Origin: Solobacterium sp. UBA3691
Lineage (GTDB): Bacteria > Bacillota_I > Bacilli_A > Erysipelotrichales > Erysipelotrichaceae
Assembly (NCBI GenBank): GCA_002372175.1
Contig: DFIS01000080.1
Span: forward strand, 1-39,664
Length of the DNA: 39,664 nucleotides
Direction of reading: 5' to 3'
The notes under the pieces were generated by a model that saw nothing but the letters and a program-made list of their open reading frames with translations, did no database searches and was not told the origin of the DNA. This document shows, piece by piece, positions 6,291 to 16,597 of the stretch; the first letter of the stretch is position 1; every line of letters begins with the position of its first letter. The position numbers and the translations under genes are program-made.

Positions 6291-6325
6291 ATAAAACAAA
6301 ATACTCCTGTTGGACAAGAGTATTT
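6291..6325 (-). terminator. Weak candidate terminator between the island and the M16 peptidase gene
   Basis: On the minus strand, AAATACTC (pairs with 6318-6325), an 11-nt loop and GAGTATTT are followed by TGTTTTATT. The stem is AT-rich, so stability is low. Confidence 0.3.
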
Positions 6326-6553
6326 CTTTGCTGTCTCTCCCTGTTACTGCGGGACAGATATCGATTTACAGGACAATCAGCCACGGGGATGGGATGCATC
6401 ACATGACAAGTAACACAAACTTCTTCAATGCGTATTTCAGCAGAGAGTATCCCGCTAGATGTATGAAGAATTATCAAAAGATGATCAACTTCCGTACCGA
6501 TGCTCTAAGACATCATATTTCTTATTTAGAAACTGTAGAATTATAATTGCTGA

Positions 6554-9184
6554 TCAATTGATTTTCACCCACATAGCTGGACGGATCATGTACTCGTATT
6601 TTTGTTTAACAATCGGAGAATATCCATCAACGTATATACCATACAAGCCAATGCCTCCATCATGTACTCCAAAAGCAGCAGTATAAGGTTCTTGACCGGG
6701 CGAGCGCAGCCACCAATTAGAACCATTAGTGACATCGTTGACATAAACACCTTTCCCGAGTGTATATGGTGTTGCTTTTGCCAATCTTTCAGCATCAGAA
6801 TTAAAATACTGCTGAGCTTCCTGTATTGATAACAGGAATATCTTATCCTGTGTATCTTTTCCCGGATCTGTATTGTACTCCGGATTCTTGTCTGCTGTCA
6901 CAGTGCTTGTTTCAATGAGTGATTGTTCTTCACCGGTAAATGCTGATGAAATAAAATAACTATTCAACCATTTTCGAAGTGAACAAGTTTGCCATGTACC
7001 ATTCTCCCTTGATGTATCATATGGCTGACTGTCCAATCCGTATTCACTGATCAAAAGGATCCTGTTATCTTCTTTTGCTAAAACTTTCCATGTAATAGCT
7101 TCTTTGCCATTAGAAGTACTCGCATCCTGTTCATATGAACCAAATGTTACTATTTCTCCGGGCTTGGCAACCATAACTGTAACATACGGATTTTCTTCTC
7201 TAATAGATGCTGCCAGTTCAGCGCTGTCTTTATATCCATTCAAACCCATCAATATCTCATATGCGCCGGCATAATCTCCATTTTCTCGCATAGCAATTGC
7301 GGATTTATACTTATTGCTTGGAATTACCGTTGTTCTTATGATCACAAAAGCAACCACACAAAGAACCAAAACAGCAGTAACTATGCCAATTATGCTCTTT
7401 TTCTTTTTACGGGAGATTTCTTCCTGTTTTCTCTGAATCGCATACTGTCGCTCTATTTCTTTGCGATTCTCTTCTGTTAATCTGTCTATCTCCTTCTGGC
7501 AATACTCTGAATAACCGCCGCTTTCCTGATAACCCTTAAGCGAATCAAATACTGTTTTTGCTTTTTCAAAAGACGTTATATCTGTTGCGGCATTCATCGC
7601 AGTAATAGCTTGTGTATAGTCCAGATTTCTCCTTTGCTCTGCCTGCTCAGCCAATGCCTGCACTTCTTTATCTGCTTGTATAAGGAAAGCAGCATAATTA
7701 CTCTTCACCTTAGAAATACTGTTCTCATCTGTCTTTTTAGCAAGGGTGATACGCTCGTCCAAAATACGGTTTAATTCTGAGAGTTCATTTTCCAGCTTCT
7801 TCTTTGTTTCACCTTTAGCGTATTGTAATGCTCTGGTCAGATTACGTTCTGATTCCAATTCTTTTTGCAGCTTTGATTTTTGAATTCTTCTGCTTTGAAG
7901 ATAAGAGTCAAATCCAAGATCATATTGATATTGTCTCAGAATAGCTTCTCTGTCCAGGTATCCGTCAATACTGTATTTCTGTACTGCTGCATTAATATGA
8001 TCATTATCTTCCTGTCCTGCTTTTACTCGCTGGATGCCGGCATGTTTATACTCTTCTTTGTAATGATTAAACAAAGCTTCAAGATTTGGCTGACGGTTTT
8101 TCAGCAGAAGTTTTCCAAGATATGCTTCTGCAGATTCAGGCTCCTGATTCAGTGCTTCTTCAAAGAAACTATCGGCTTTATCCCATTCCTTGTCCTCAAG
8201 AGCTATCATGCCTCTTTTGACAAATGCCGAGGCACCACCTGAAGAATTGTTCTGAGTAACCGCCTTCTGAACAAACGGGGCTGCAGTCTCCTTTATAACC
8301 ACCTTTTTGATTCCACGAACCACATCATTGATAAATCCAATCTTACTCATGTCCTGTGCCTGGAGATGTGAGAATTCTTCAGGCAGGTCATATGCATCCA
8401 TATCTCTGTAGCAAGGAATCAGCAGCTTGGTACGGTCTTTTTTCATCAATTTCAGGAAACGTGACCATTCGTTCTTTACCCATACTGCATTGAAATACTC
8501 CGGTCTAGTGCCAATCACCAGCATTACTTTTGCTGTATTCAGTGCTGAGAAAATATACGGTTCATATTCTTTTCCCAGTTTATCTTCCAAAGTAATAGCC
8601 GCAAAGAATACTTTAAATCCTTCACGTGTCAGTTGGTAATAGATTTCATTGGCAATCACACTATCCTGTGTTCGTTTCCCAGATTCATCCGTCTCCTTAT
8701 AGCAGATGAAAACATCATATGGATCTTCTTTCTGTGCAAGGGCAAGGATTCCGCGCTGGATCTCATCGATCTCTTTAGCCTGAGCTTCATAGATTCCTCT
8801 TTGGGCAGTATCTGCGTAATATAATGCGTTCTTATAATCTTCATCCGCAGTGACTGATTCATATGACGCACGATGGCATGTCGGAACTCTCTTATACGTC
8901 ACCGGATCTTCAACATACTCAATACCGTACTTACAGAGGATAAGCCCCCAGTATGCTTCAGCTTCTGTTTCACTCCTCTGAAGGATCTTTTCATAGATCT
9001 CTGCTGCTTTATCAAACTCAGAGCGCATACGAAGCGTATTTGCTCTGTTGAAAAGCGTCTGCAAACCTTCATCATGAACAGAAGGAATTGTTTGTCTGGT
9101 ACCGCAGAACTCACATTCACATACCCTGCTTCCCTCTATAACGGTTAAATCACCGCCGCACATCTTACATTTCCATACCACCAT
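6554..9184 (-). CDS. Transmembrane TIR-domain protein: N-terminal Zn-ribbon, TPR-like region, TIR domain, TPR, long coiled coil, one TM helix, C-terminal DUF6273-like domain
   Basis: I moved the start to the ATG at 9184 (AAGGAG RBS 8 nt upstream); the track ORF starts at 9214. Zn-ribbon: CKMCGG...CECEFCG. TIR-like block: YDVFICYKETDESGK...AVWVKNEWSRFL, nt ~8315-8719, with the candidate catalytic Glu codon at 8468-8470. TM helix: KKKK-SIIGIVTAVLVLCVVAFVII-R, nt 7337-7396. The C-terminal domain has the SNWWLRSPG and RPAMWV motifs typical of DUF6273. Confidence 0.8.
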   Translation of the reverse strand: MVVWKCKMCGGDLTVIEGSRVCECEFCGTRQTIPSVHDEGLQTLFNRANTLRMRSEFDKAAEIYEKILQRSETEAEAYWGLILCKYGIEYVEDPVTYKRVPTCHRASYESVTADEDYKNALYYADTAQRGIYEAQAKEIDEIQRGILALAQKEDPYDVFICYKETDESGKRTQDSVIANEIYYQLTREGFKVFFAAITLEDKLGKEYEPYIFSALNTAKVMLVIGTRPEYFNAVWVKNEWSRFLKLMKKDRTKLLIPCYRDMDAYDLPEEFSHLQAQDMSKIGFINDVVRGIKKVVIKETAAPFVQKAVTQNNSSGGASAFVKRGMIALEDKEWDKADSFFEEALNQEPESAEAYLGKLLLKNRQPNLEALFNHYKEEYKHAGIQRVKAGQEDNDHINAAVQKYSIDGYLDREAILRQYQYDLGFDSYLQSRRIQKSKLQKELESERNLTRALQYAKGETKKKLENELSELNRILDERITLAKKTDENSISKVKSNYAAFLIQADKEVQALAEQAEQRRNLDYTQAITAMNAATDITSFEKAKTVFDSLKGYQESGGYSEYCQKEIDRLTEENRKEIERQYAIQRKQEEISRKKKKSIIGIVTAVLVLCVVAFVIIRTTVIPSNKYKSAIAMRENGDYAGAYEILMGLNGYKDSAELAASIREENPYVTVMVAKPGEIVTFGSYEQDASTSNGKEAITWKVLAKEDNRILLISEYGLDSQPYDTSRENGTWQTCSLRKWLNSYFISSAFTGEEQSLIETSTVTADKNPEYNTDPGKDTQDKIFLLSIQEAQQYFNSDAERLAKATPYTLGKGVYVNDVTNGSNWWLRSPGQEPYTAAFGVHDGGIGLYGIYVDGYSPIVKQKYEYMIRPAMWVKIN

Positions 9185-9265
9185 ACTTAAGTCTCCTTCG
9201 TAGTTTTCTGGCAAAAGCTATTCCTATTACATTTTTGGTTTATGATTCACCTATTTGTTATATTT

Positions 9266-10207
9266 CTATCCTTCAAAAATATCGGTCAAATGCTCATCCA
9301 AAAAGTTTTCTAGAGCAGCATTTACCAATCTCAGACACTTCAAATCCAAATCATTTTTAAACGCTATCAGCTGTATCGGTCTATTTGCATGAAACAGTGT
9401 GCACCGAAGGTAATATGACAGTTCACCGACGATAAATCCCTCTACGGTGATATCCTTTTTGACATGCTTTTCTATATAATGACTGATGATCTTATATGTT
9501 TTGGTTTCACTGTCCCGAATATCCTTCAGGAAGGTGTTTTCGCTGACTTCCTGCAGTGCCAAAAGCGGAGATTTTCCTAAGCTTTCTCGTTCTCTCTGTA
9601 TCAGCATTTCATTTCCAAGATGATATCGCCTTAAAATTCTCTCTATATTGGGTTTATCCTTATGTTTTTCAGCATCACGTCTGGATGAATAAAAACCATT
9701 AAATGCCATCCAAAGATTCTGAAACCGTTCTGTTTCATATGCTCTGCTTTTGCTGTACAAATATGCAGATAAAGCCGCGCTCTCACTTCCCTTTTCGGTT
9801 TTTGTTGCCGACATCGCTTTTTGAAGGAATTGAGTTTCCTTAACGTATTCCGGCAGGGGTCTCAACAATTTGGAATTGATCATCGAGTAAGGCATAAAGC
9901 TTGTATCGATAATCTCCTTACATTCATTCCCATCAATCACAGTTAATTCAAAGCATTGATTCTTGATAGGTGCTTCATATAGAAAAAGATGCAGGATCAT
10001 TGCACGCCTGATTCCTTCTCTCATGAGATTGATAAGATACTGATTATTTGTTTTTCTATAATCTTTACCAATCAAAGCACTGATCGTGTACTTATCCTTT
10101 GCTATCCGAACACTAATGTGATGGGTTCGCTGAAAAGAGAATTCAAACTTTTTAGCTCTTCTCAATTCATCATTACAGTTTACCTTTAACAAGTATTTCA
10201 GTTTCAT
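9266..10207 (-). CDS. Hypothetical protein with a C-terminal HEPN-like Rx4H motif (candidate RNase effector)
   Basis: 313-aa AT-rich ORF. The C-terminal helical half contains YYL-R-CTLF-H-ANRP (R268/H273, nt 9389-9406), which fits the HEPN Rx4-6H signature. An upstream helix ERFQNLWMAFNGFY resembles the first HEPN helix. The N-terminal ~130 aa are unrecognised. The functional call is tentative. Confidence 0.4.
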   Translation of the reverse strand: MKLKYLLKVNCNDELRRAKKFEFSFQRTHHISVRIAKDKYTISALIGKDYRKTNNQYLINLMREGIRRAMILHLFLYEAPIKNQCFELTVIDGNECKEIIDTSFMPYSMINSKLLRPLPEYVKETQFLQKAMSATKTEKGSESAALSAYLYSKSRAYETERFQNLWMAFNGFYSSRRDAEKHKDKPNIERILRRYHLGNEMLIQRERESLGKSPLLALQEVSENTFLKDIRDSETKTYKIISHYIEKHVKKDITVEGFIVGELSYYLRCTLFHANRPIQLIAFKNDLDLKCLRLVNAALENFLDEHLTDIFEG

Positions 10208-10277: not shown

Positions 10278-10967
10278 TTACTTGTTTCGTGCACAAAGCA
10301 CATTTCTTTCTTTCAGCTGTGCAGTAATCTTTAAACAGCTTTTCTCTGCTTCTGAACTATTCTTTTCCGTCAGATATTTCTTCAATTTTTCCATCTCGTT
10401 CAGAAGATCATATTCATGCTGGATCGTCGCATCAGACGATACCGGATCACTATATTTAAACTCTTCTGTAAGATCCTGAAGTTTTTTCTTTAATGACCCA
10501 TCCTCACAAATACTAACTAATGCTGAACAGGCTGCCTGTAATGAACGCATGTTCGTAGTATCTTTCTTTATCTTTACTTCCTGTCGTTCTACTTCTTCTC
10601 TTGCTGCATCTGCTGCTACAGTACCTATAACAGCCAATGCTGCGGGCAGTATGTTGATCACGACAGCGATCCATGTCTTTATATATGGCGCAGCAATCAT
10701 CCCAATCAGACTGATCACCAACTGGGCAATCATATACATGACTCCTACACGTGCAATAGGAAAACCATAGAATTTACTTTTTGTTTCTGCTCCGTCAGCA
10801 AACGATATTTTCAGAACATACACCTGGAATACGATGGCAATTACACCAAACAGATATGAAATCCAGAAAACAGCATTTTTATTAAATGGAGCCGCAAACG
10901 CTATAACACTGAAGACGGCAAATATTACAGAAAGGATGATATACCGACGAAGTTCGTTTTTAGACAT
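10278..10967 (-). CDS. Hypothetical 4-TM membrane protein with a ~100-aa cytoplasmic helical tail
   Basis: 229-aa ORF with four clear hydrophobic helices followed by a charged helical C-terminus (…LQDLTEEFKYSDPVSS…). Its start lies 3 nt after the SPFH gene stop, which suggests tight coupling. Confidence 0.6.
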   Translation of the reverse strand: MSKNELRRYIILSVIFAVFSVIAFAAPFNKNAVFWISYLFGVIAIVFQVYVLKISFADGAETKSKFYGFPIARVGVMYMIAQLVISLIGMIAAPYIKTWIAVVINILPAALAVIGTVAADAAREEVERQEVKIKKDTTNMRSLQAACSALVSICEDGSLKKKLQDLTEEFKYSDPVSSDATIQHEYDLLNEMEKLKKYLTEKNSSEAEKSCLKITAQLKERNVLCARNK

Positions 10968-10969
10968 GT

Positions 10970-12820
10970 CTATTCACCTCTTCTCTTTCCGCATATATTG
11001 CAGAAGTTACCGATTATATTCTTGTTACCGCACGAGCAATCCCATGTTGCAGGAACCGACGGTTCCGGTCTCCTGGCTCCGCACATATTACAGAAATTGC
11101 CAATGATATTCTTATTGCCGCATGCACAGTCCCATGTATCCGGTTTAACAGGCTGCGGTCTTCTGGTTCCGCACATATTGCAGAAGTTACCGACGATATT
11201 CTTATTACCGCATGTACAGTCCCATGTATCTGCAACCGGCTGTGTACTTGTTGCAGGATTCGGTACTGCACCTGTCTGTGTCATGTTCATATTTTGGAAC
11301 ATACCGCCAATCTGCGGTGCAACTGCATTCATTGCAGCAAGTCCTACACCAAGACCAAGCATGTCACCCATAACATTGGAGCCCCCGCCTGCAGAGATTG
11401 CCGGTCCCATATTCCCGATTCCTTCAGCATATGCTTTCTGCACTTCAGCCTGCAGTACGTCCCTTTGAGAATATCCCTTGGCAGCCATAACCTCTGCTTC
11501 TGTTAAACCTGCCATTCTCTGTGCCTGCGCTTCCGCCTGGGCAGCAATGACTCTTCTTTCAGCTTCACGTCTGGCGATCTCCGTTTCAGTCGTCTGTCTC
11601 TGCAGTTCAGCTTCACGGCGTGCTGCTTCGATCGTCGCTCTGCTTTGTTCCTGCGCGGTTCTGTACTGAGTCTCTGCCTGTGCCTGTACAGTCTTTATCG
11701 TTGCATCTGCCTGCACAACTCTTGCCTGAAGGGTAATTGTATGCAGTTCTCTTATCCGTTTGAAATTCGGATCATTTTCCGGAAGCACCACACTTGTTAC
11801 ATATAACTGAGGGATGGTTAAACCATATTCTTCAAATCCCGGAAGAATCTTCTGTCTGAGATTTTCAGATATAAGATCCAGCTTCTCATCAATCTCCAAA
11901 AGATCAATATTCTCATTTTTAATTACTGAAGACAGATTGGTTTTTACAGCATTTGCGATTAATGGCCGGAAGGATGCCTGAAGTGATTTTGTCATACCTT
12001 CCCCACCGTCCCATGAAACTCCTTTTGTTGTTCCTACAAGCTTTACAAGCAGTTTCCTGGCATTAGATACCTGTAGATTCATTTCACCGGATGCTCCGAT
12101 CTCCAACGGTGTACCGGTCAATGGATCAATGAAGCGTACTTTTTCCGGTGTCCCCCACTTAATAGCCATCTGAACAGTCTTATTAATAAAATACACTTCA
12201 GAGTGGAAAGTCCTGTCTGTATCTGTAGGCAGCTGATAAATAGAATCCAAAATCGGAAGTTTCTGAGTTTCAAGTGTGTATCTGCCCGGTCCAAACAGAT
12301 CTAACGCCTGGCCATCTCTGAAAAAAACCGCTTCCTGACTTTCGTGCACGATCAACTGAGATCCCATATTGAAATCTTCTATAGGATGCTTCCAGATAAA
12401 AGTATTATTATCTCCTTCATATTTGATGATGCTTGCCAGACCGTCTTTTCTCATCTTTTCAGCCATCAGGCGTTCCGGAACATTATTCACAAAGTCACAA
12501 ACTGGACATGTATAGGAAGATGCCGCCTTGCTGGTGATCAGTTTCACACCACATTGGGCGCAGGAAAATTCTGCCATTTTATCTTGGCCTTCCATCGTAT
12601 TGATTGGTTCTCCGCAGACAGGACACTTCGCCTTTGCTCCTTTTGACTGATCAAAAACAACATCATTGCTGCAGTGAGGGCATTTTCTGCTTATAAGTTT
12701 ATCCATACGAACATTAATCGTGTAACCGCAGGAACAATCAATTTTCTTTCTTGCAAAGAACCCACTGCTTGCTTCTACATATTTGCCGCAGTTCGGACAC
12801 TCCATTACGAATTTAGACAT
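10970..12820 (-). CDS. SPFH/Band-7 family protein (YdjI / COG4260-like) with three N-terminal Zn-ribbons and three C-terminal RanBP2-like Zn fingers
   Basis: 616-aa ORF. N-terminal CxxC pairs: CPNCG...CSCG, CPHCS...CPVCG, CAQCG...CPVCD. The central region (IIKYEGDNNTFIWKHP...SQLIVHESQEAVFFRDGQ...) is typical of YdjI-type SPFH proteins and is followed by an A/Q/E-rich coiled coil. The C-terminus has 3x TWDC.CGNKNI.GNFCN.CG.RR. A GAGGGAG RBS precedes the start. Confidence 0.8.
   Translation of the reverse strand: MSKFVMECPNCGKYVEASSGFFARKKIDCSCGYTINVRMDKLISRKCPHCSNDVVFDQSKGAKAKCPVCGEPINTMEGQDKMAEFSCAQCGVKLITSKAASSYTCPVCDFVNNVPERLMAEKMRKDGLASIIKYEGDNNTFIWKHPIEDFNMGSQLIVHESQEAVFFRDGQALDLFGPGRYTLETQKLPILDSIYQLPTDTDRTFHSEVYFINKTVQMAIKWGTPEKVRFIDPLTGTPLEIGASGEMNLQVSNARKLLVKLVGTTKGVSWDGGEGMTKSLQASFRPLIANAVKTNLSSVIKNENIDLLEIDEKLDLISENLRQKILPGFEEYGLTIPQLYVTSVVLPENDPNFKRIRELHTITLQARVVQADATIKTVQAQAETQYRTAQEQSRATIEAARREAELQRQTTETEIARREAERRVIAAQAEAQAQRMAGLTEAEVMAAKGYSQRDVLQAEVQKAYAEGIGNMGPAISAGGGSNVMGDMLGLGVGLAAMNAVAPQIGGMFQNMNMTQTGAVPNPATSTQPVADTWDCTCGNKNIVGNFCNMCGTRRPQPVKPDTWDCACGNKNIIGNFCNMCGARRPEPSVPATWDCSCGNKNIIGNFCNICGKRRGE
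10973..11227 (-). repeat. Three tandem ~90-bp coding repeats (one Zn finger each)
   Basis: Repeat units lie at about 11138-11227, 11048-11137 and 10973-11047 (the last is truncated by the stop). The periodicity also shows in the antisense ORF 10998..11468 (LQKLP.IFLLPH.QSHV x3). Confidence 0.85.
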
Positions 12821-13014
12821 TATAATTCTCCCTCTTCAGTGCTTTTACTTATCTCCTGAATCACTTCATTAAAAACAGTCAGACTGTTCTTCTTGTTAAT
12901 TGGTATATCAAGAATTTTTGCGTCATGATCCATATTCATTTCTGCTGATAGCCTACAAATATATACCGATATTATTTTGCCGATTTTTTGCGATCTACCA
13001 CGATATATGAACAT
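12820..13014 (-). CDS. Possible small ORF (39-64 aa) translationally coupled to the SPFH gene
   Basis: Its stop TAA overlaps the SPFH ATG (TAATG). I recognised no family and the start is uncertain (an internal MNMDHDAK... start is possible). It could be spurious. Confidence 0.25.
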   Translation of the reverse strand: MFIYRGRSQKIGKIISVYICRLSAEMNMDHDAKILDIPINKKNSLTVFNEVIQEISKSTEEGEL

Positions 13015-13152: not shown

Positions 13153-15738
13153 TTAGTCGATTTTCACCCATAAAGCGGGGCGGACCGTGTTACTGTCATC
13201 ATCCACGGAGTCGCCGATCACATCGACAAGAACAGAGATCTTAGCAGCAAACCCGGAATCGCTGCCGGGCGACCGCAGCCACCAGGAACACATTCCTTTG
13301 TCATTTGTATAAGCTCCATTCTTTTTTGCGTATGGCGTTGCTTTAGCACTTCTATTTTCATCGGATTTGAAATATTTGTTTACTTCAGGCACAGATAAGA
13401 GAAATATCTTATCCTGTGTATTCTTACCAGGGTCTGCAGGATACTCAGGATTCTTATCCGCAGTTACTTTTGTCGTAAGAATCCGTGCTTTTTCCTGTCC
13501 ATTAAACACAGTATTATAGAACTCTTTATTCAACCATTTTCTTATCGAACATTTTTCCCATGTTATACTTTCGTATTCTTCGTTGTATGGCTTCGCATCA
13601 ATTCCATCTTCTGTAATCAGCAGTGCTCTGTCTTTTTTAACTTCAAGTATTCGCCATTTAATTGGTTTCTTCTGAGAATCATATTGATAAGTGCCAAACC
13701 CTTGACTTATTATTTGAGCTTTATTAATTAACGGGTTTATTGCATTTATAATCATTGCCTTTGCAGAGACAGTATTATTTTGATGTATGATTACTGCTTT
13801 CTTTTCCGGCTTTGGCTTTTGTACGGGTTTATCTGCTGGCTTGGTCACTGGTTTCGTTTCAATGAGTGTTTTTTTCAAAGCCGCAATATTATCCTCCAAC
13901 TCTTTTCTCTTTTTGCCGGAGAACAAACCTTTCAAATTCTTTTTTTCAGATTCTAATTTCTTTATTTTCTCTTCCAATTCACCTTTTTTCTTCTCTGCGG
14001 TTATACATGATTCTTCATAATCAATTTTGGATTGTTCCCATTTCTTTACAGCTAGATTATTATCGTTTTCCCATTGACTAATATCTCTCTGGTAAGAATC
14101 TTCAGCGTCTTTTTCCGCTTTCTTTCTTGCTGTTTCTTCCTCTATTTTTATTTTGGAAATCTGATCAGCATTTTTTTCTAAACGATCAGAAATATCTCTT
14201 TTAAACAATTCTGACTGTTCAGCCAATAATTTTTCTGCATTTTTTCTCTTTTCTAATTCTTTTGACATTTCAGATTTAAGAAGATCCCTGAGTTTGTCGA
14301 TCACTTTGTTTATTTCTTTTTCAACATTTCCATCTTTGTATCTGCATGCGCGTTTGTAATCGCGGTTGTTAAGAAGTTTCCCAAGACCTTCAACTGATAA
14401 ATTTCTGAATGCCTCCCTATAGCACACAGGATCCTCTAGTGTAAATGTTATTTTTTCAGGATGTAAGCCAATCAGCAATTTATCCAGTTCCTGATCAGAG
14501 AATTCATCGAGGAAGTGCCGAGAATCTGCTTCCCTTGCATATGCATGCGCCTCAAATGGAAGCGTCTGAACCCATAAATGTTCTTGCGCGTGCTTTTTAA
14601 TCTGGTCAAATAATTTTTTTGCCAATTCTGCTGAGCAATTCGAATTATACACGCACAGTACTTTCCCCCAGTAAGCAGCGCCACATTCTGCATCATTGTT
14701 AAGAACCTGCTCATAAAACTCATTAGCTCTTGTAAAATCACCATCTTCAATTGCCATATTGCCACGTTTCAATAGTGACTGTGTCTGCGCGTTCAAAACT
14801 GACAGCCCGCTGTCAGTATTTTTTTCTTCTTTTTCCTTATTATCTTTTCTCAGAATTTTATCGATCCCTCTCAAAAGATCCTGCATTGCACCTACTTTTC
14901 CCATATCTTGTGCCTGCAGTCTTGCAAATTCCTTCGGCATATCATATGCATCCAGATTTTTATATACCGGGATCATTGTTTTCTTTTCTCCTGAAGCTAT
15001 AAGATGAAGATATCTACTCCATTCGTTCTTTACCCATACCGCATCAAAATATTCAAATTTTGTTCCAACGGCCAGCATCAGTTTGGCGGAATGAAGTGCC
15101 GCAAAGATATATGGTTCATATTCCGTGCCGAGTTTATCTTCTAACGTAATTCTGGAGAAGAATACCCGATATCCCTTTTCAGTTAAAGCATTATAAATAT
15201 CCTGTGCCAGAACACTGTCCAGTGTCCTTTCTCCGTTTTCATCGGTTTCTTTGTAGCAAATAAAGATATCATACGGCTGTTCATTGGAAGATACTTCTAT
15301 TATGCCTTTTCTCAGATCTTCAATTTTCTTAGCCTCGTCACGATATACACGCTTTGCAACTGCATCAGCATATTCCATGACCATCTCATAATTATTGTCA
15401 TCAAAAATACTTTCAAACGAGGATCTGTGGCAGGTAGGCACTTTCTTTCCGGTTAGCGGATCATCAACATACTCTATTCCATACTTGCAAAGAACCAGTC
15501 CCCAGTATGCTTCTGCTTCTTCCTGAAATTCAGAAATGATAGCTTCATATACACCGGCAGCTTTGTCGAATTCATTATTAAAACGAAGTCTGTTTGCCCG
15601 TGTAAACAAATTCATCTTTTTTTCATTATCCGCATTTGGAATTGTCTGCAAAGTTCCGCAGAATTCACATTCACATACTGTACTGCCTTCTATCGGTGTA
15701 AGATCTCCACCGCACATTTTACATTTCAGAGCCACCAT
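13153..15738 (-). CDS. Soluble TIR-domain protein, paralogue of 6554..9184: Zn-ribbon, TPR-like region, TIR, TPR, long K/E-rich coiled coil, P/K linker, DUF6273-like C-terminal domain; no TM helix
   Basis: 861-aa ORF with a GGAGGG RBS. The first ~290 aa are collinear and gap-free with the other TIR protein (about 60% identity by eye). TIR block: YDIFICYKETDENGE...AVWVKNEWSRYL, nt ~14869-15273, Glu codon at 15022-15024. The C-terminus has the CSWWLRSPG and RPALWV motifs. Confidence 0.8.
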   Translation of the reverse strand: MVALKCKMCGGDLTPIEGSTVCECEFCGTLQTIPNADNEKKMNLFTRANRLRFNNEFDKAAGVYEAIISEFQEEAEAYWGLVLCKYGIEYVDDPLTGKKVPTCHRSSFESIFDDNNYEMVMEYADAVAKRVYRDEAKKIEDLRKGIIEVSSNEQPYDIFICYKETDENGERTLDSVLAQDIYNALTEKGYRVFFSRITLEDKLGTEYEPYIFAALHSAKLMLAVGTKFEYFDAVWVKNEWSRYLHLIASGEKKTMIPVYKNLDAYDMPKEFARLQAQDMGKVGAMQDLLRGIDKILRKDNKEKEEKNTDSGLSVLNAQTQSLLKRGNMAIEDGDFTRANEFYEQVLNNDAECGAAYWGKVLCVYNSNCSAELAKKLFDQIKKHAQEHLWVQTLPFEAHAYAREADSRHFLDEFSDQELDKLLIGLHPEKITFTLEDPVCYREAFRNLSVEGLGKLLNNRDYKRACRYKDGNVEKEINKVIDKLRDLLKSEMSKELEKRKNAEKLLAEQSELFKRDISDRLEKNADQISKIKIEEETARKKAEKDAEDSYQRDISQWENDNNLAVKKWEQSKIDYEESCITAEKKKGELEEKIKKLESEKKNLKGLFSGKKRKELEDNIAALKKTLIETKPVTKPADKPVQKPKPEKKAVIIHQNNTVSAKAMIINAINPLINKAQIISQGFGTYQYDSQKKPIKWRILEVKKDRALLITEDGIDAKPYNEEYESITWEKCSIRKWLNKEFYNTVFNGQEKARILTTKVTADKNPEYPADPGKNTQDKIFLLSVPEVNKYFKSDENRSAKATPYAKKNGAYTNDKGMCSWWLRSPGSDSGFAAKISVLVDVIGDSVDDDSNTVRPALWVKID

Positions 15739-15905
15739 GATGATCCCTCCATTTCCCCTTATAATTGATTAAGATTATCTATTTATCGCAATTCGCTCAA
15801 TCTGGACTAAAACGTGTACTTTTTTGCTTGGTAATATGTCTAAATCAAATTTTAACATATACCGCTCTTTATGCGCATAACAATAAGGTACTTAGAAGCT
15901 AATAC

Positions 15906-16597
<692 letters not shown>

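Follow-up and report, generated by a model that had tools for sequence, protein, structure and literature searches.

The 39,664-nt contig DFIS01000080.1 of Solobacterium sp. UBA3691 (assembly GCA_002372175.1), called the window in the following, carries on its minus strand a gene for a 616-aa SPFH protein (10970..12820), which is followed by a gene for a 229-aa protein with four predicted transmembrane (TM) helices (4-TM protein, 10278..10967). Both genes lie in an island that also harbors two genes for TIR domain proteins. We found that the SPFH, 4-TM and TIR genes form a conserved three-component gene system that has apparently not been described before. Judged from sequence, the SPFH and 4-TM proteins, the constant core components 1 and 2, may constitute a membrane hub for interchangeable sensors composed of a zinc ribbon, TPR repeats and a TIR domain, most likely in defense against phages or other invaders. 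We favor this interpretation tentatively and give it slightly less than an even chance. To our knowledge, the TIR domain of all described bacterial TIR systems is either paired with an effector that is activated by a small molecule or fused to an NTPase, Argonaute or cyclase sensor. Full-text literature searches that combined SPFH, Band-7 or flotillin with TIR, anti-phage or defense retrieved no description of such a system, and the PADLOC database (2023) had no model for the SPFH protein, the 4-TM protein or the 313-aa protein that is encoded next to them. SPFH, Band_7, DUF6273 and RCC1 are not mentioned in the main text and some of the supplements of a 2025 survey of TIR systems with 29 effector types (bioRxiv 10.64898/2025.12.03.692087).

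The SPFH protein had at least 8000 homologs at E ≤ 1e-10, and the best 120 of them were full-length with 64-86% identity. Relatives were present in at least 594 species representatives of GTDB, nearly all of them gut or rumen Clostridia (Lachnospiraceae, Oscillospiraceae, Ruminococcus, Acutalibacteraceae and Christensenellales). For a sample of 80 species-level loci, the open reading frames (ORFs) of the neighborhood were called and searched with the proteins of the window. Unsupervised clustering of the neighbors resulted in three conserved families only: SPFH in 73 loci, 4-TM in 66 loci, and zinc ribbon-TPR-TIR proteins with 130 genes in 70 loci. Of the 34 loci in which the sequence extended for 5 kb or more on either side, 33 had the 4-TM gene and 32 a gene with the full TIR head. 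The TIR genes were located on the SPFH strand in 94 of 95 cases, and one to five copies were present per locus (five in L033). We also tested the linkage in the reverse direction, with the TIR head as the starting point and in a separate collection of metagenome contigs. The SPFH gene was found in all nine loci of at least 18 kb, and SPFH or 4-TM in 24 of the 31 loci of at least 12 kb. Since the linkage runs both ways in two independent collections, we concluded that the juxtaposition is not due to chance and that the genes belong to one gene system. An earlier note on this DNA had predicted a functional module of SPFH protein, membrane partner and TIR genes, which would have been contradicted by pair and TIR genes occurring widely without each other; the TIR gene in 32 of 34 pair loci and the pair in 9 of 9 TIR loci of at least 18 kb show the opposite. 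The SPFH protein co-varied with the 4-TM protein (rho 0.38, reached by 0 of 500 permutations) and only weakly with the TIR heads, in agreement with a stable core combined with exchangeable sensor cassettes.

The SPFH core of the 616-aa protein was matched by the Pfam profile Band_7_1 (PF13421) at aa 149-349 (11774..12376, minus strand, Pfam envelope; E=2.5e-37, 129 bits versus a cut-off of 24) and also by Band_7 (1.2e-8). The protein contains no hydrophobic segments and thus has no membrane anchor of its own. Three Cys4 zinc ribbons precede the core (12497..12799, minus strand; 12 invariant Cys), at aa 8-31 with the pattern CxxC...CxC and at aa 47-69 and 87-108 with the pattern CxxC...CxxC. 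The core is followed by a long helix rich in Ala, Gln and Glu (aa 351-437), as seen in a low-confidence AlphaFold2 (AF2) model, and by a low-complexity stretch (aa ~467-530); according to alignment A1 and AF2, both together span 11231..11770 on the minus strand. Three fingers of the type WDCxCG...FCxxCG form the C-terminus (10988..11224, minus strand). They have the sequence WDCxCGNKNIxGNFCNxCG, are located at aa 533, 563 and 593, and are encoded by a 90-nt tandem repeat with 2.7 copies. The six Cys modules had been described in the earlier note together with a YdjI-type core, and both descriptions agree with our data: the profile search assigns the core to the YdjI-type (Band_7_1) SPFH proteins, the soluble protein has the layout described for YdjI (PMC8581546), and all 24 Cys residues were invariant across 26 full-length homologs with 64-86% identity (alignment A1). 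From the Cys pattern alone, binding of zinc by ribbons and fingers is probable. The N-terminal ribbons gave generic zinc ribbon signals in Pfam, each under the cut-off. Neither zf-RanBP nor any other Pfam profile matched the fingers at E ≤ 10, and their likeness to RanBP2-type fingers is limited to the pattern W-x-C...C-x2-C. Three N-terminal ribbons were present in 66 of 77 SPFH orthologs, whereas the number of fingers varied from 3 to 6 in alignment A1 and from 0 to 5 among the orthologs by a strict regular expression, which possibly undercounts them. A search of the SPFH sequence against solved structures gave no match. We also considered that the number of fingers reflects the number of docking sites; this was rejected, as finger number showed no correlation with TIR copies (rho -0.09, p=0.65, n=27).

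The stretch at aa ~467-530 (11231-11422) is Gly/Met-rich, mildly hydrophobic and conserved. Despite its low complexity, residues G485, D486, G489, L490, G491, A496, P502 and G505 were invariant or nearly so. The hydrophobic pattern resembles a glycine zipper (GDMLGLGVGLAAM), and the segment could interact with the membrane.

The 4-TM gene is translationally coupled to the SPFH gene. The junction reads ...GAA TAG AC ATG..., with a Shine-Dalgarno sequence (GAGGTG) 8 nt upstream of the start codon. The close spacing had been noticed before, but the spacer comprises 2 nt and the start codon does not lie 3 nt behind the stop codon, which is a trivial difference. The 4-TM gene was located 3' of the SPFH gene in 68 of 77 loci, and the spacing was mostly between -4 and +6 nt. 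Hydrophobicity and an AF2 model (pLDDT 84.9) agree on four TM helices (by hydrophobicity aa 10-28, 33-51, 71-89 and 100-118), which are followed by a tail of four helices. Because of the distribution of Lys and Arg, the N-terminus and the tail are placed in the cytoplasm, as the earlier note had assumed for the tail. The cytoplasmic loop S64-x-FYGFPI and certain residues of the tail were invariant. No TPM, NfeD or other Pfam domain was matched even at E ≤ 10, no family or fold was recognized with Pfam, NCBIfam, PADLOC and structure searches, and a sequence search against solved structures returned nothing meaningful.

Both TIR proteins of the window were clearly above the Pfam cut-off for TIR_2 (28 bits). 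Paralog 1 (861 aa, 13153..15738, minus strand; TIR_2 44.4 bits, DUF6273 2.4e-32) has the layout zinc ribbon-TPR-TIR-TPR-coiled coil-DUF6273 and no TM helix. Paralog 2 (876 aa, 6554..9184, minus strand; TIR_2 45.3 bits, DUF6273 6.3e-30) has the same order of domains with a TM helix (aa 608-626) between coiled coil and DUF6273. Its 876 aa are counted from Met11 of the ORF 6554-9214; gene callers use this start, and the exact protein is on record. DUF6273 is encoded at 13162-13632 in the soluble protein and at 6563-7069 in the TM-anchored protein, where it is predicted to face outside. Within the whole family, the TIR proteins comprise 450-1300 aa. Their N-terminal ~370 residues, the head with zinc ribbon, TPR, TIR and TPR, had a mean column identity of 60% in 61 paralogs, with invariant ribbon Cys residues and the invariant motif W245-V-x-N-E249-W. 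The tails are unrelated among paralogs (9% column identity) and carry RCC1 (32/87), DUF6273 (20/87), and also BspA-type leucine-rich repeats (LRR), Ank, MORN or TPR. DUF6273 adopts a C-type-lectin-like fold, and in receptor-binding proteins of gut phages it is diversified by diversity-generating retroelements (PMC10743442, PMC11792537). Two separate copies of the system with differing sets of TIR sensors were observed in the metagenome-assembled genome RUG10851 (L011 and L030) and in ruminal_MAG_154 (L004 and L008).

Residue E249 of the TIR domain aligned with the Glu of the motif SKWCLMEL in the TIR domains of flax L6/L7, which we take to be the catalytic glutamate of plant TIRs and the equivalent of SARM1 E642. 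A sequence search of the TIR head against solved structures returned TPR matches only. In PADLOC (2023), the TIR proteins reached E values of ~1e-3 only, and there were weak matches to the models for ThsB and the Thoeris type III TIR protein.

A TM helix between head and sensor was present in 50 of 108 TIR paralogs. All 33 paralogs with a single TM helix had more Lys and Arg on its N-terminal side (5.9 versus 1.8), and because of this more basic flank we assume an N-in/C-out topology with a cytoplasmic TIR domain and an extracellular sensor. In a seed-based classification of the C-termini, anchored and soluble paralogs used the same sensor types (RCC1, 14 versus 18; DUF6273, 8 versus 7); clustering by BLAST had been confounded by coiled coils and TPRs that the proteins have in common. 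Inside/outside twins of one sensor type, as in the window, were repeatedly seen across loci for RCC1 and DUF6273.

In five loci only, the tight coupling of SPFH and 4-TM genes was broken by a sensor-type gene without TIR domain: L042 (11870-13549), L071 (11861-13537), L013 (11433-13049), L012 (11986-13914) and L005 (6034-7233). RCC1 was found in the genes of L042, L071 and L013 and LRR_5 in that of L005; no Pfam domain was matched in L012. The TPR segment that follows the TIR domain in the TIR protein of the window was matched by the TIR-less genes of L013, L012 and L005, but not by those of L042 and L071. A reduced variant of the system is located on the 20-kb plasmid pNP21 of Butyrivibrio fibrisolvens (NZ_CP146965.1, 4925-10053; L171). 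It comprises a recombinase, an SPFH protein with C-terminal fingers and without N-terminal ribbons, a 4-TM gene in two pieces and, as third component, a zinc ribbon-TPR-coiled-coil protein without TIR. This variant is neighbored by genes for a YoeB/RelB toxin-antitoxin pair and for the S subunit of a restriction-modification system.

The island in the window (~6.3-16.6 kb) has a GC content of 0.37-0.47 versus 0.50-0.54 in its flanks. All its genes are on the minus strand and would be transcribed in the order recombinase, 861-aa TIR protein, 616-aa SPFH protein, 229-aa 4-TM protein, 313-aa protein, second TIR protein. The earlier note had placed the SPFH/4-TM pair between two TIR genes; TIR genes do flank the pair, but on the downstream side they are not directly adjacent, since the gene for the 313-aa protein (9266..10207, minus strand) intervenes. 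A terminator-like hairpin with a 13-bp stem and a T run (6298..6326, minus strand) is located 3' of the last island gene, and no comparable minus-strand site was found between the island genes. Housekeeping genes follow beyond the island, for an M16 peptidase at one end and for a 2-hydroxyacid dehydrogenase and citrate lyase at the opposite end. No att-like or long repeats were detected at the island ends; long repeats were confined to the two TIR paralogs and the fingers. An exact look-up of the flanking dehydrogenase, performed as an empty-site test, returned the same arrangement only. In two assemblies, gene callers annotated a 39-aa ORF (12820-12939), the terminal ATGA of which overlaps the SPFH start codon. 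This ORF is not similar to the gene with ribbon-helix-helix (RHH) motif that is located at this position in other loci.

The first island gene encodes a small serine recombinase in two overlapping frames (15906..16567, minus strand; Resolvase N-terminal domain 5.4e-18), one of 193 aa with the catalytic part and one of 168 aa with the remainder. The 193-aa call was identical in two independent assemblies (L161, L162), so that the frameshift is probably real or programmed and not a sequencing error. In the 247-nt region that separates the recombinase from the first TIR gene, the sequence A[A/T]AAGTACAC[G/A]T occurs three times. Two of the copies are the 15-nt arms (93% complementary) of an inverted repeat (15810..15929 including the inner segment), and the 90-nt segment between them holds an extended -10-like sequence, TGTTAAAAT, directed toward the operon. 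This segment looks like an invertible promoter. An invertase together with an inverted-repeat-flanked segment of promoter size was found upstream in about a tenth of the loci, including the window. All other examined loci with a recombinase directly upstream had the same design, with arms of 15-30 nt and inner segments of 77-167 nt (L001, 832-1042; L040, 6704-6863; L066, 9832-9964; L163, 9775-9963; L166, 7741-7872), and the core AAAAGTRYAC was common to the inverted repeats of the recombinase-bearing loci. In a systematic scan, an inverted-repeat score of at least 15 was reached in 9 of 10 recombinase loci, while 105 others had a median of 8 and a 95th percentile of 12.8. In the small sample available for comparison, both orientations of the segment were not observed, and inversion is thus unproven: the window, L161 and L162 were alike, as were the near-identical pairs L137/L128 and L123/L156, and the inner sequences of the other loci were too divergent for comparison.

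The 313-aa protein belongs to a family with 315 cluster representatives and the invariant residues W166, Y265, R268 and H273, and it had no match in Pfam, PADLOC or PDB. Its R-x4-H motif resembles that of HEPN RNases, and it may be an accessory effector. The gene was present in one other of the 80 loci (L051). A small RHH-like gene headed the operon in 13 of the 80 loci (e.g., L001, 1039-1299; L034, 9702-9989; L045, 8113-8424) and is absent from the window. The assignment to the RHH type was made by eye from the motif ...SVISMRMPK.ML..ID.IA..TGRTRNEI..., and the copy in L001 had no Pfam match. Among 137 neighboring proteins from about 20 loci, encoded no more than 5 kb away from the system, strong PADLOC matches were obtained for RT_UG24, PDC-S37, Hhe, MkoA/MkoC, pAgo, WYL and mad1/2, and the neighbors also included recombinases, integrases, GNAT acetyltransferases and methyltransferases. 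Together with the low GC content and the plasmid-borne variant, the nearby recombinases, integrases and PADLOC matches are suggestive of a conflict system. We also considered a phage origin of the gene set. This was rejected, as the system is rare on phages: only seven IMG/VR contigs carried a relative, and no GenBank phage record had a full-length match.

The closest characterized SPFH protein is YdjI (SamI) of B. subtilis, a soluble protein that combines a low-complexity stretch with a C-terminal zinc finger, is recruited by the membrane proteins YdjG and YdjH and itself recruits PspA. In YdjG, two zinc ribbons are joined to an NTF2-like domain and a TM segment, and YdjH has a TPM domain (PMC8581546, PMC11237479, bioRxiv 10.64898/2026.02.06.704340). 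The system described here shares with PspA-YdjGHI (SamGHI) the Band_7_1-type soluble SPFH protein with low-complexity stretch and C-terminal zinc finger and its joint encoding with a membrane partner; zinc ribbons at the start of a protein are a feature of YdjG there. When compared by description, the zinc ribbon heads are found here on the TIR proteins, which are variable and present in multiple copies, and on the SPFH protein itself. In contrast to B. subtilis, none of the six island genes was matched by the Pfam profile PspA_IM30, the partner is an orphan 4-TM protein and not a TPM-domain YdjH, the SPFH protein has three additional N-terminal ribbons and three to six fingers instead of one, and the genes are embedded in a region of low GC content and are in some cases carried by a plasmid. 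The analogy to PspA-YdjGHI, which the earlier note had used as mechanism, was thus not supported: PspA is missing from the island and no further family was conserved across the 80 loci. By the domain and fold searches, the 4-TM protein was not recognizable as a homolog of YdjH or YdjG either, having no TPM or other known domain.

Some features are shared with other known systems. As in Thoeris (types I-XI), several TIR genes per locus surround one constant module, the TIR domain keeps a Glu at the catalytic position, and membrane-protein effectors are known from Thoeris (bioRxiv 10.64898/2025.12.03.692087). Here, however, the constant module consists of SPFH and 4-TM without signal-binding domain and without match to ThsA-L, the TIR proteins are 450-1300 aa long with a zinc ribbon-TPR head and repeat or lectin sensors and are half of them transmembrane, and heads without TIR persist. 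The fusion of a repeat or lectin sensor to TIR is reminiscent of Avs-TIR and TIR-NLR-like STAND proteins, but no STAND NTPase is present. SPFH-NfeD pairs also couple an SPFH gene to a gene for a small membrane protein, whereas the 4-TM protein lacks the NfeD domain. Superstructure-forming Band7 modules were noted before in the unrelated vWA-MoxR (VMAP) conflict systems (PMC7159879), a precedent for the proposed hub; vWA or MoxR genes are not present here. In animal Toll-like receptors (TLRs), a single TM helix links the ectodomain to the cytoplasmic TIR domain, and the receptors signal from flotillin-marked microdomains (PMC4293489). The orientation is reversed in the proteins described here, with an N-terminal TIR domain and a C-terminal sensor, and the relation to TLRs is an analogy only.

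SPFH proteins generally oligomerize. We propose that the soluble SPFH protein would likewise oligomerize and that the 4-TM protein, with which it is co-translated, would tether it beneath the membrane. The TIR paralogs would dock on this platform via their zinc ribbon-TPR heads, with the Cys4 modules of the SPFH protein as possible contact sites. The variable domain would bind a ligand, outside of the cell in the case of the N-in/C-out paralogs and inside in the case of the soluble ones, and ligand binding would cluster the TIR domains with their conserved catalytic Glu and thereby switch on cleavage of NAD+. Growth arrest or cell death would be the outcome, possibly aided by a lesion of the membrane that the 4-TM protein causes. 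In a subset of loci, the operon would be under the control of an invertible promoter. A more specific version, in which the system comprises outside-in immune receptors with lectin-like, RCC1 or LRR ectodomains on the surface, soluble cytoplasmic twins, an SPFH platform with 4-TM anchor and partly phase-variable expression, appears possible but rather unlikely. If true, extracellular contact such as phage adsorption would trigger TIR before or independently of genome entry, in parallel to TLRs in flotillin rafts.

Several observations speak against the docking hub. The weak co-variation of the SPFH protein with the best TIR head of each locus (rho 0.14, 1 of 500 permutations) gives no support for a contact, nor does the number of C-terminal fingers follow the number of TIR genes. 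The AF2 model of the SPFH protein, calculated from a shallow alignment, had a mean pLDDT of 51 and was too poor for interfaces or a fold search. Catalysis by the TIR domain is not assured, since the solved TIR structures are distant (best E ~0.1). More distant SPFH/4-TM pairs on IMG/VR contigs (L165, L167) occur without any TIR gene, which implies that the pair also has a separate function. With regard to a role in defense, the island of the window is flanked by housekeeping genes, and the enrichment of defense genes is suggestive only, as the survey of neighbors had no matched background.

We weighed the docking hub against other explanations. From the window on its own, a chance juxtaposition of the SPFH/4-TM pair and the TIR genes in one island would have been conceivable. 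Nothing beyond this single window speaks for it, and the two-way linkage and the common orientation of the TIR genes have already refuted it, so that its probability is negligible. One invariant module with several TIR genes per locus, as well as the weak ThsB and type III matches, would also fit a Thoeris-like mode of action, in which the TIR paralogs make a diffusible ADP-ribose-derived signal and the 4-TM protein, gated or organized by an SPFH ring, collapses the membrane. Stomatin-type proteins modulate channels and are a model for such an action of the SPFH protein on its partner. The invariant loop and tail residues of the 4-TM protein are in line with this mechanism, and TM-only effectors without known signal-binding domain have been validated in new Thoeris types (bioRxiv 10.64898/2025.12.03.692087). 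However, neither SPFH nor 4-TM has a recognizable nucleotide-binding domain or a PADLOC effector match. With a diffusible signal, it would also be left unexplained that the non-catalytic head is conserved better than any other part and survives in TIR-less partners. Because this head persists without TIR, we favor physical docking over a purely diffusible TIR signal and regard the Thoeris-like mechanism as unlikely, though it deserves consideration.

The existence of distant SPFH/4-TM pairs without TIR would fit envelope stress response or membrane maintenance of the YdjI/SamI type, with the pair stabilizing or surveying the membrane and the TIR proteins as accessory clients. This is in essence the interpretation of the earlier note, according to which membrane organization or membrane damage may be the trigger or the output of the system. 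SPFH subfamily and layout are as in YdjI (PMC8581546), which needs membrane partners too, among them YdjG with its zinc ribbon start (PMC11237479). On the other hand, the partners PspA, TPM and NfeD are absent, the locus lies in a low-GC stretch with an upstream recombinase and has a plasmid-borne variant, and multi-copy sensors with unrelated ligand-binding domains and an inverton-like switch do not belong to housekeeping stress systems. The data point to a docking hub more than to an envelope-stress device, and we consider the latter improbable. We rate only slightly higher, and still as quite unlikely, that the proteins serve non-immune outside-in signaling or recognize host, diet or kin at the cell surface, with the membrane-anchored TIR proteins as receptors, the TIR domain as adaptor instead of enzyme and the SPFH domain as organizer of receptor clusters. 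The N-in/C-out topology puts lectin-like, RCC1 and LRR domains outside of the cell, phase-variable control is typical of surface structures of gut bacteria, and the family is confined to gut and rumen Clostridia, which make up nearly all SPFH carriers. The invariant Glu at the catalytic position in 61 paralogs argues for an enzymatic TIR domain, however, about half of the paralogs are soluble and have the same sensor domains inside the cell, and a conserved transcription factor as output is missing, with the small RHH gene in 13 of 80 loci only.

TIR-based immunity is a central theme common to bacteria, plants and animals. If the hub interpretation is true, an SPFH scaffold as obligate TIR partner would represent a new organizing principle, a microdomain hub with exchangeable sensors, and the poorly understood YdjI-type SPFH proteins would gain a second testable role. 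The TM-anchored paralogs would then be the first candidates for TIR receptors of bacteria that have their sensing domains outside of the cell. In the human gut and the rumen, the system is abundant in Lachnospiraceae, Oscillospiraceae and Ruminococcus, and it may shape phage-host dynamics there.

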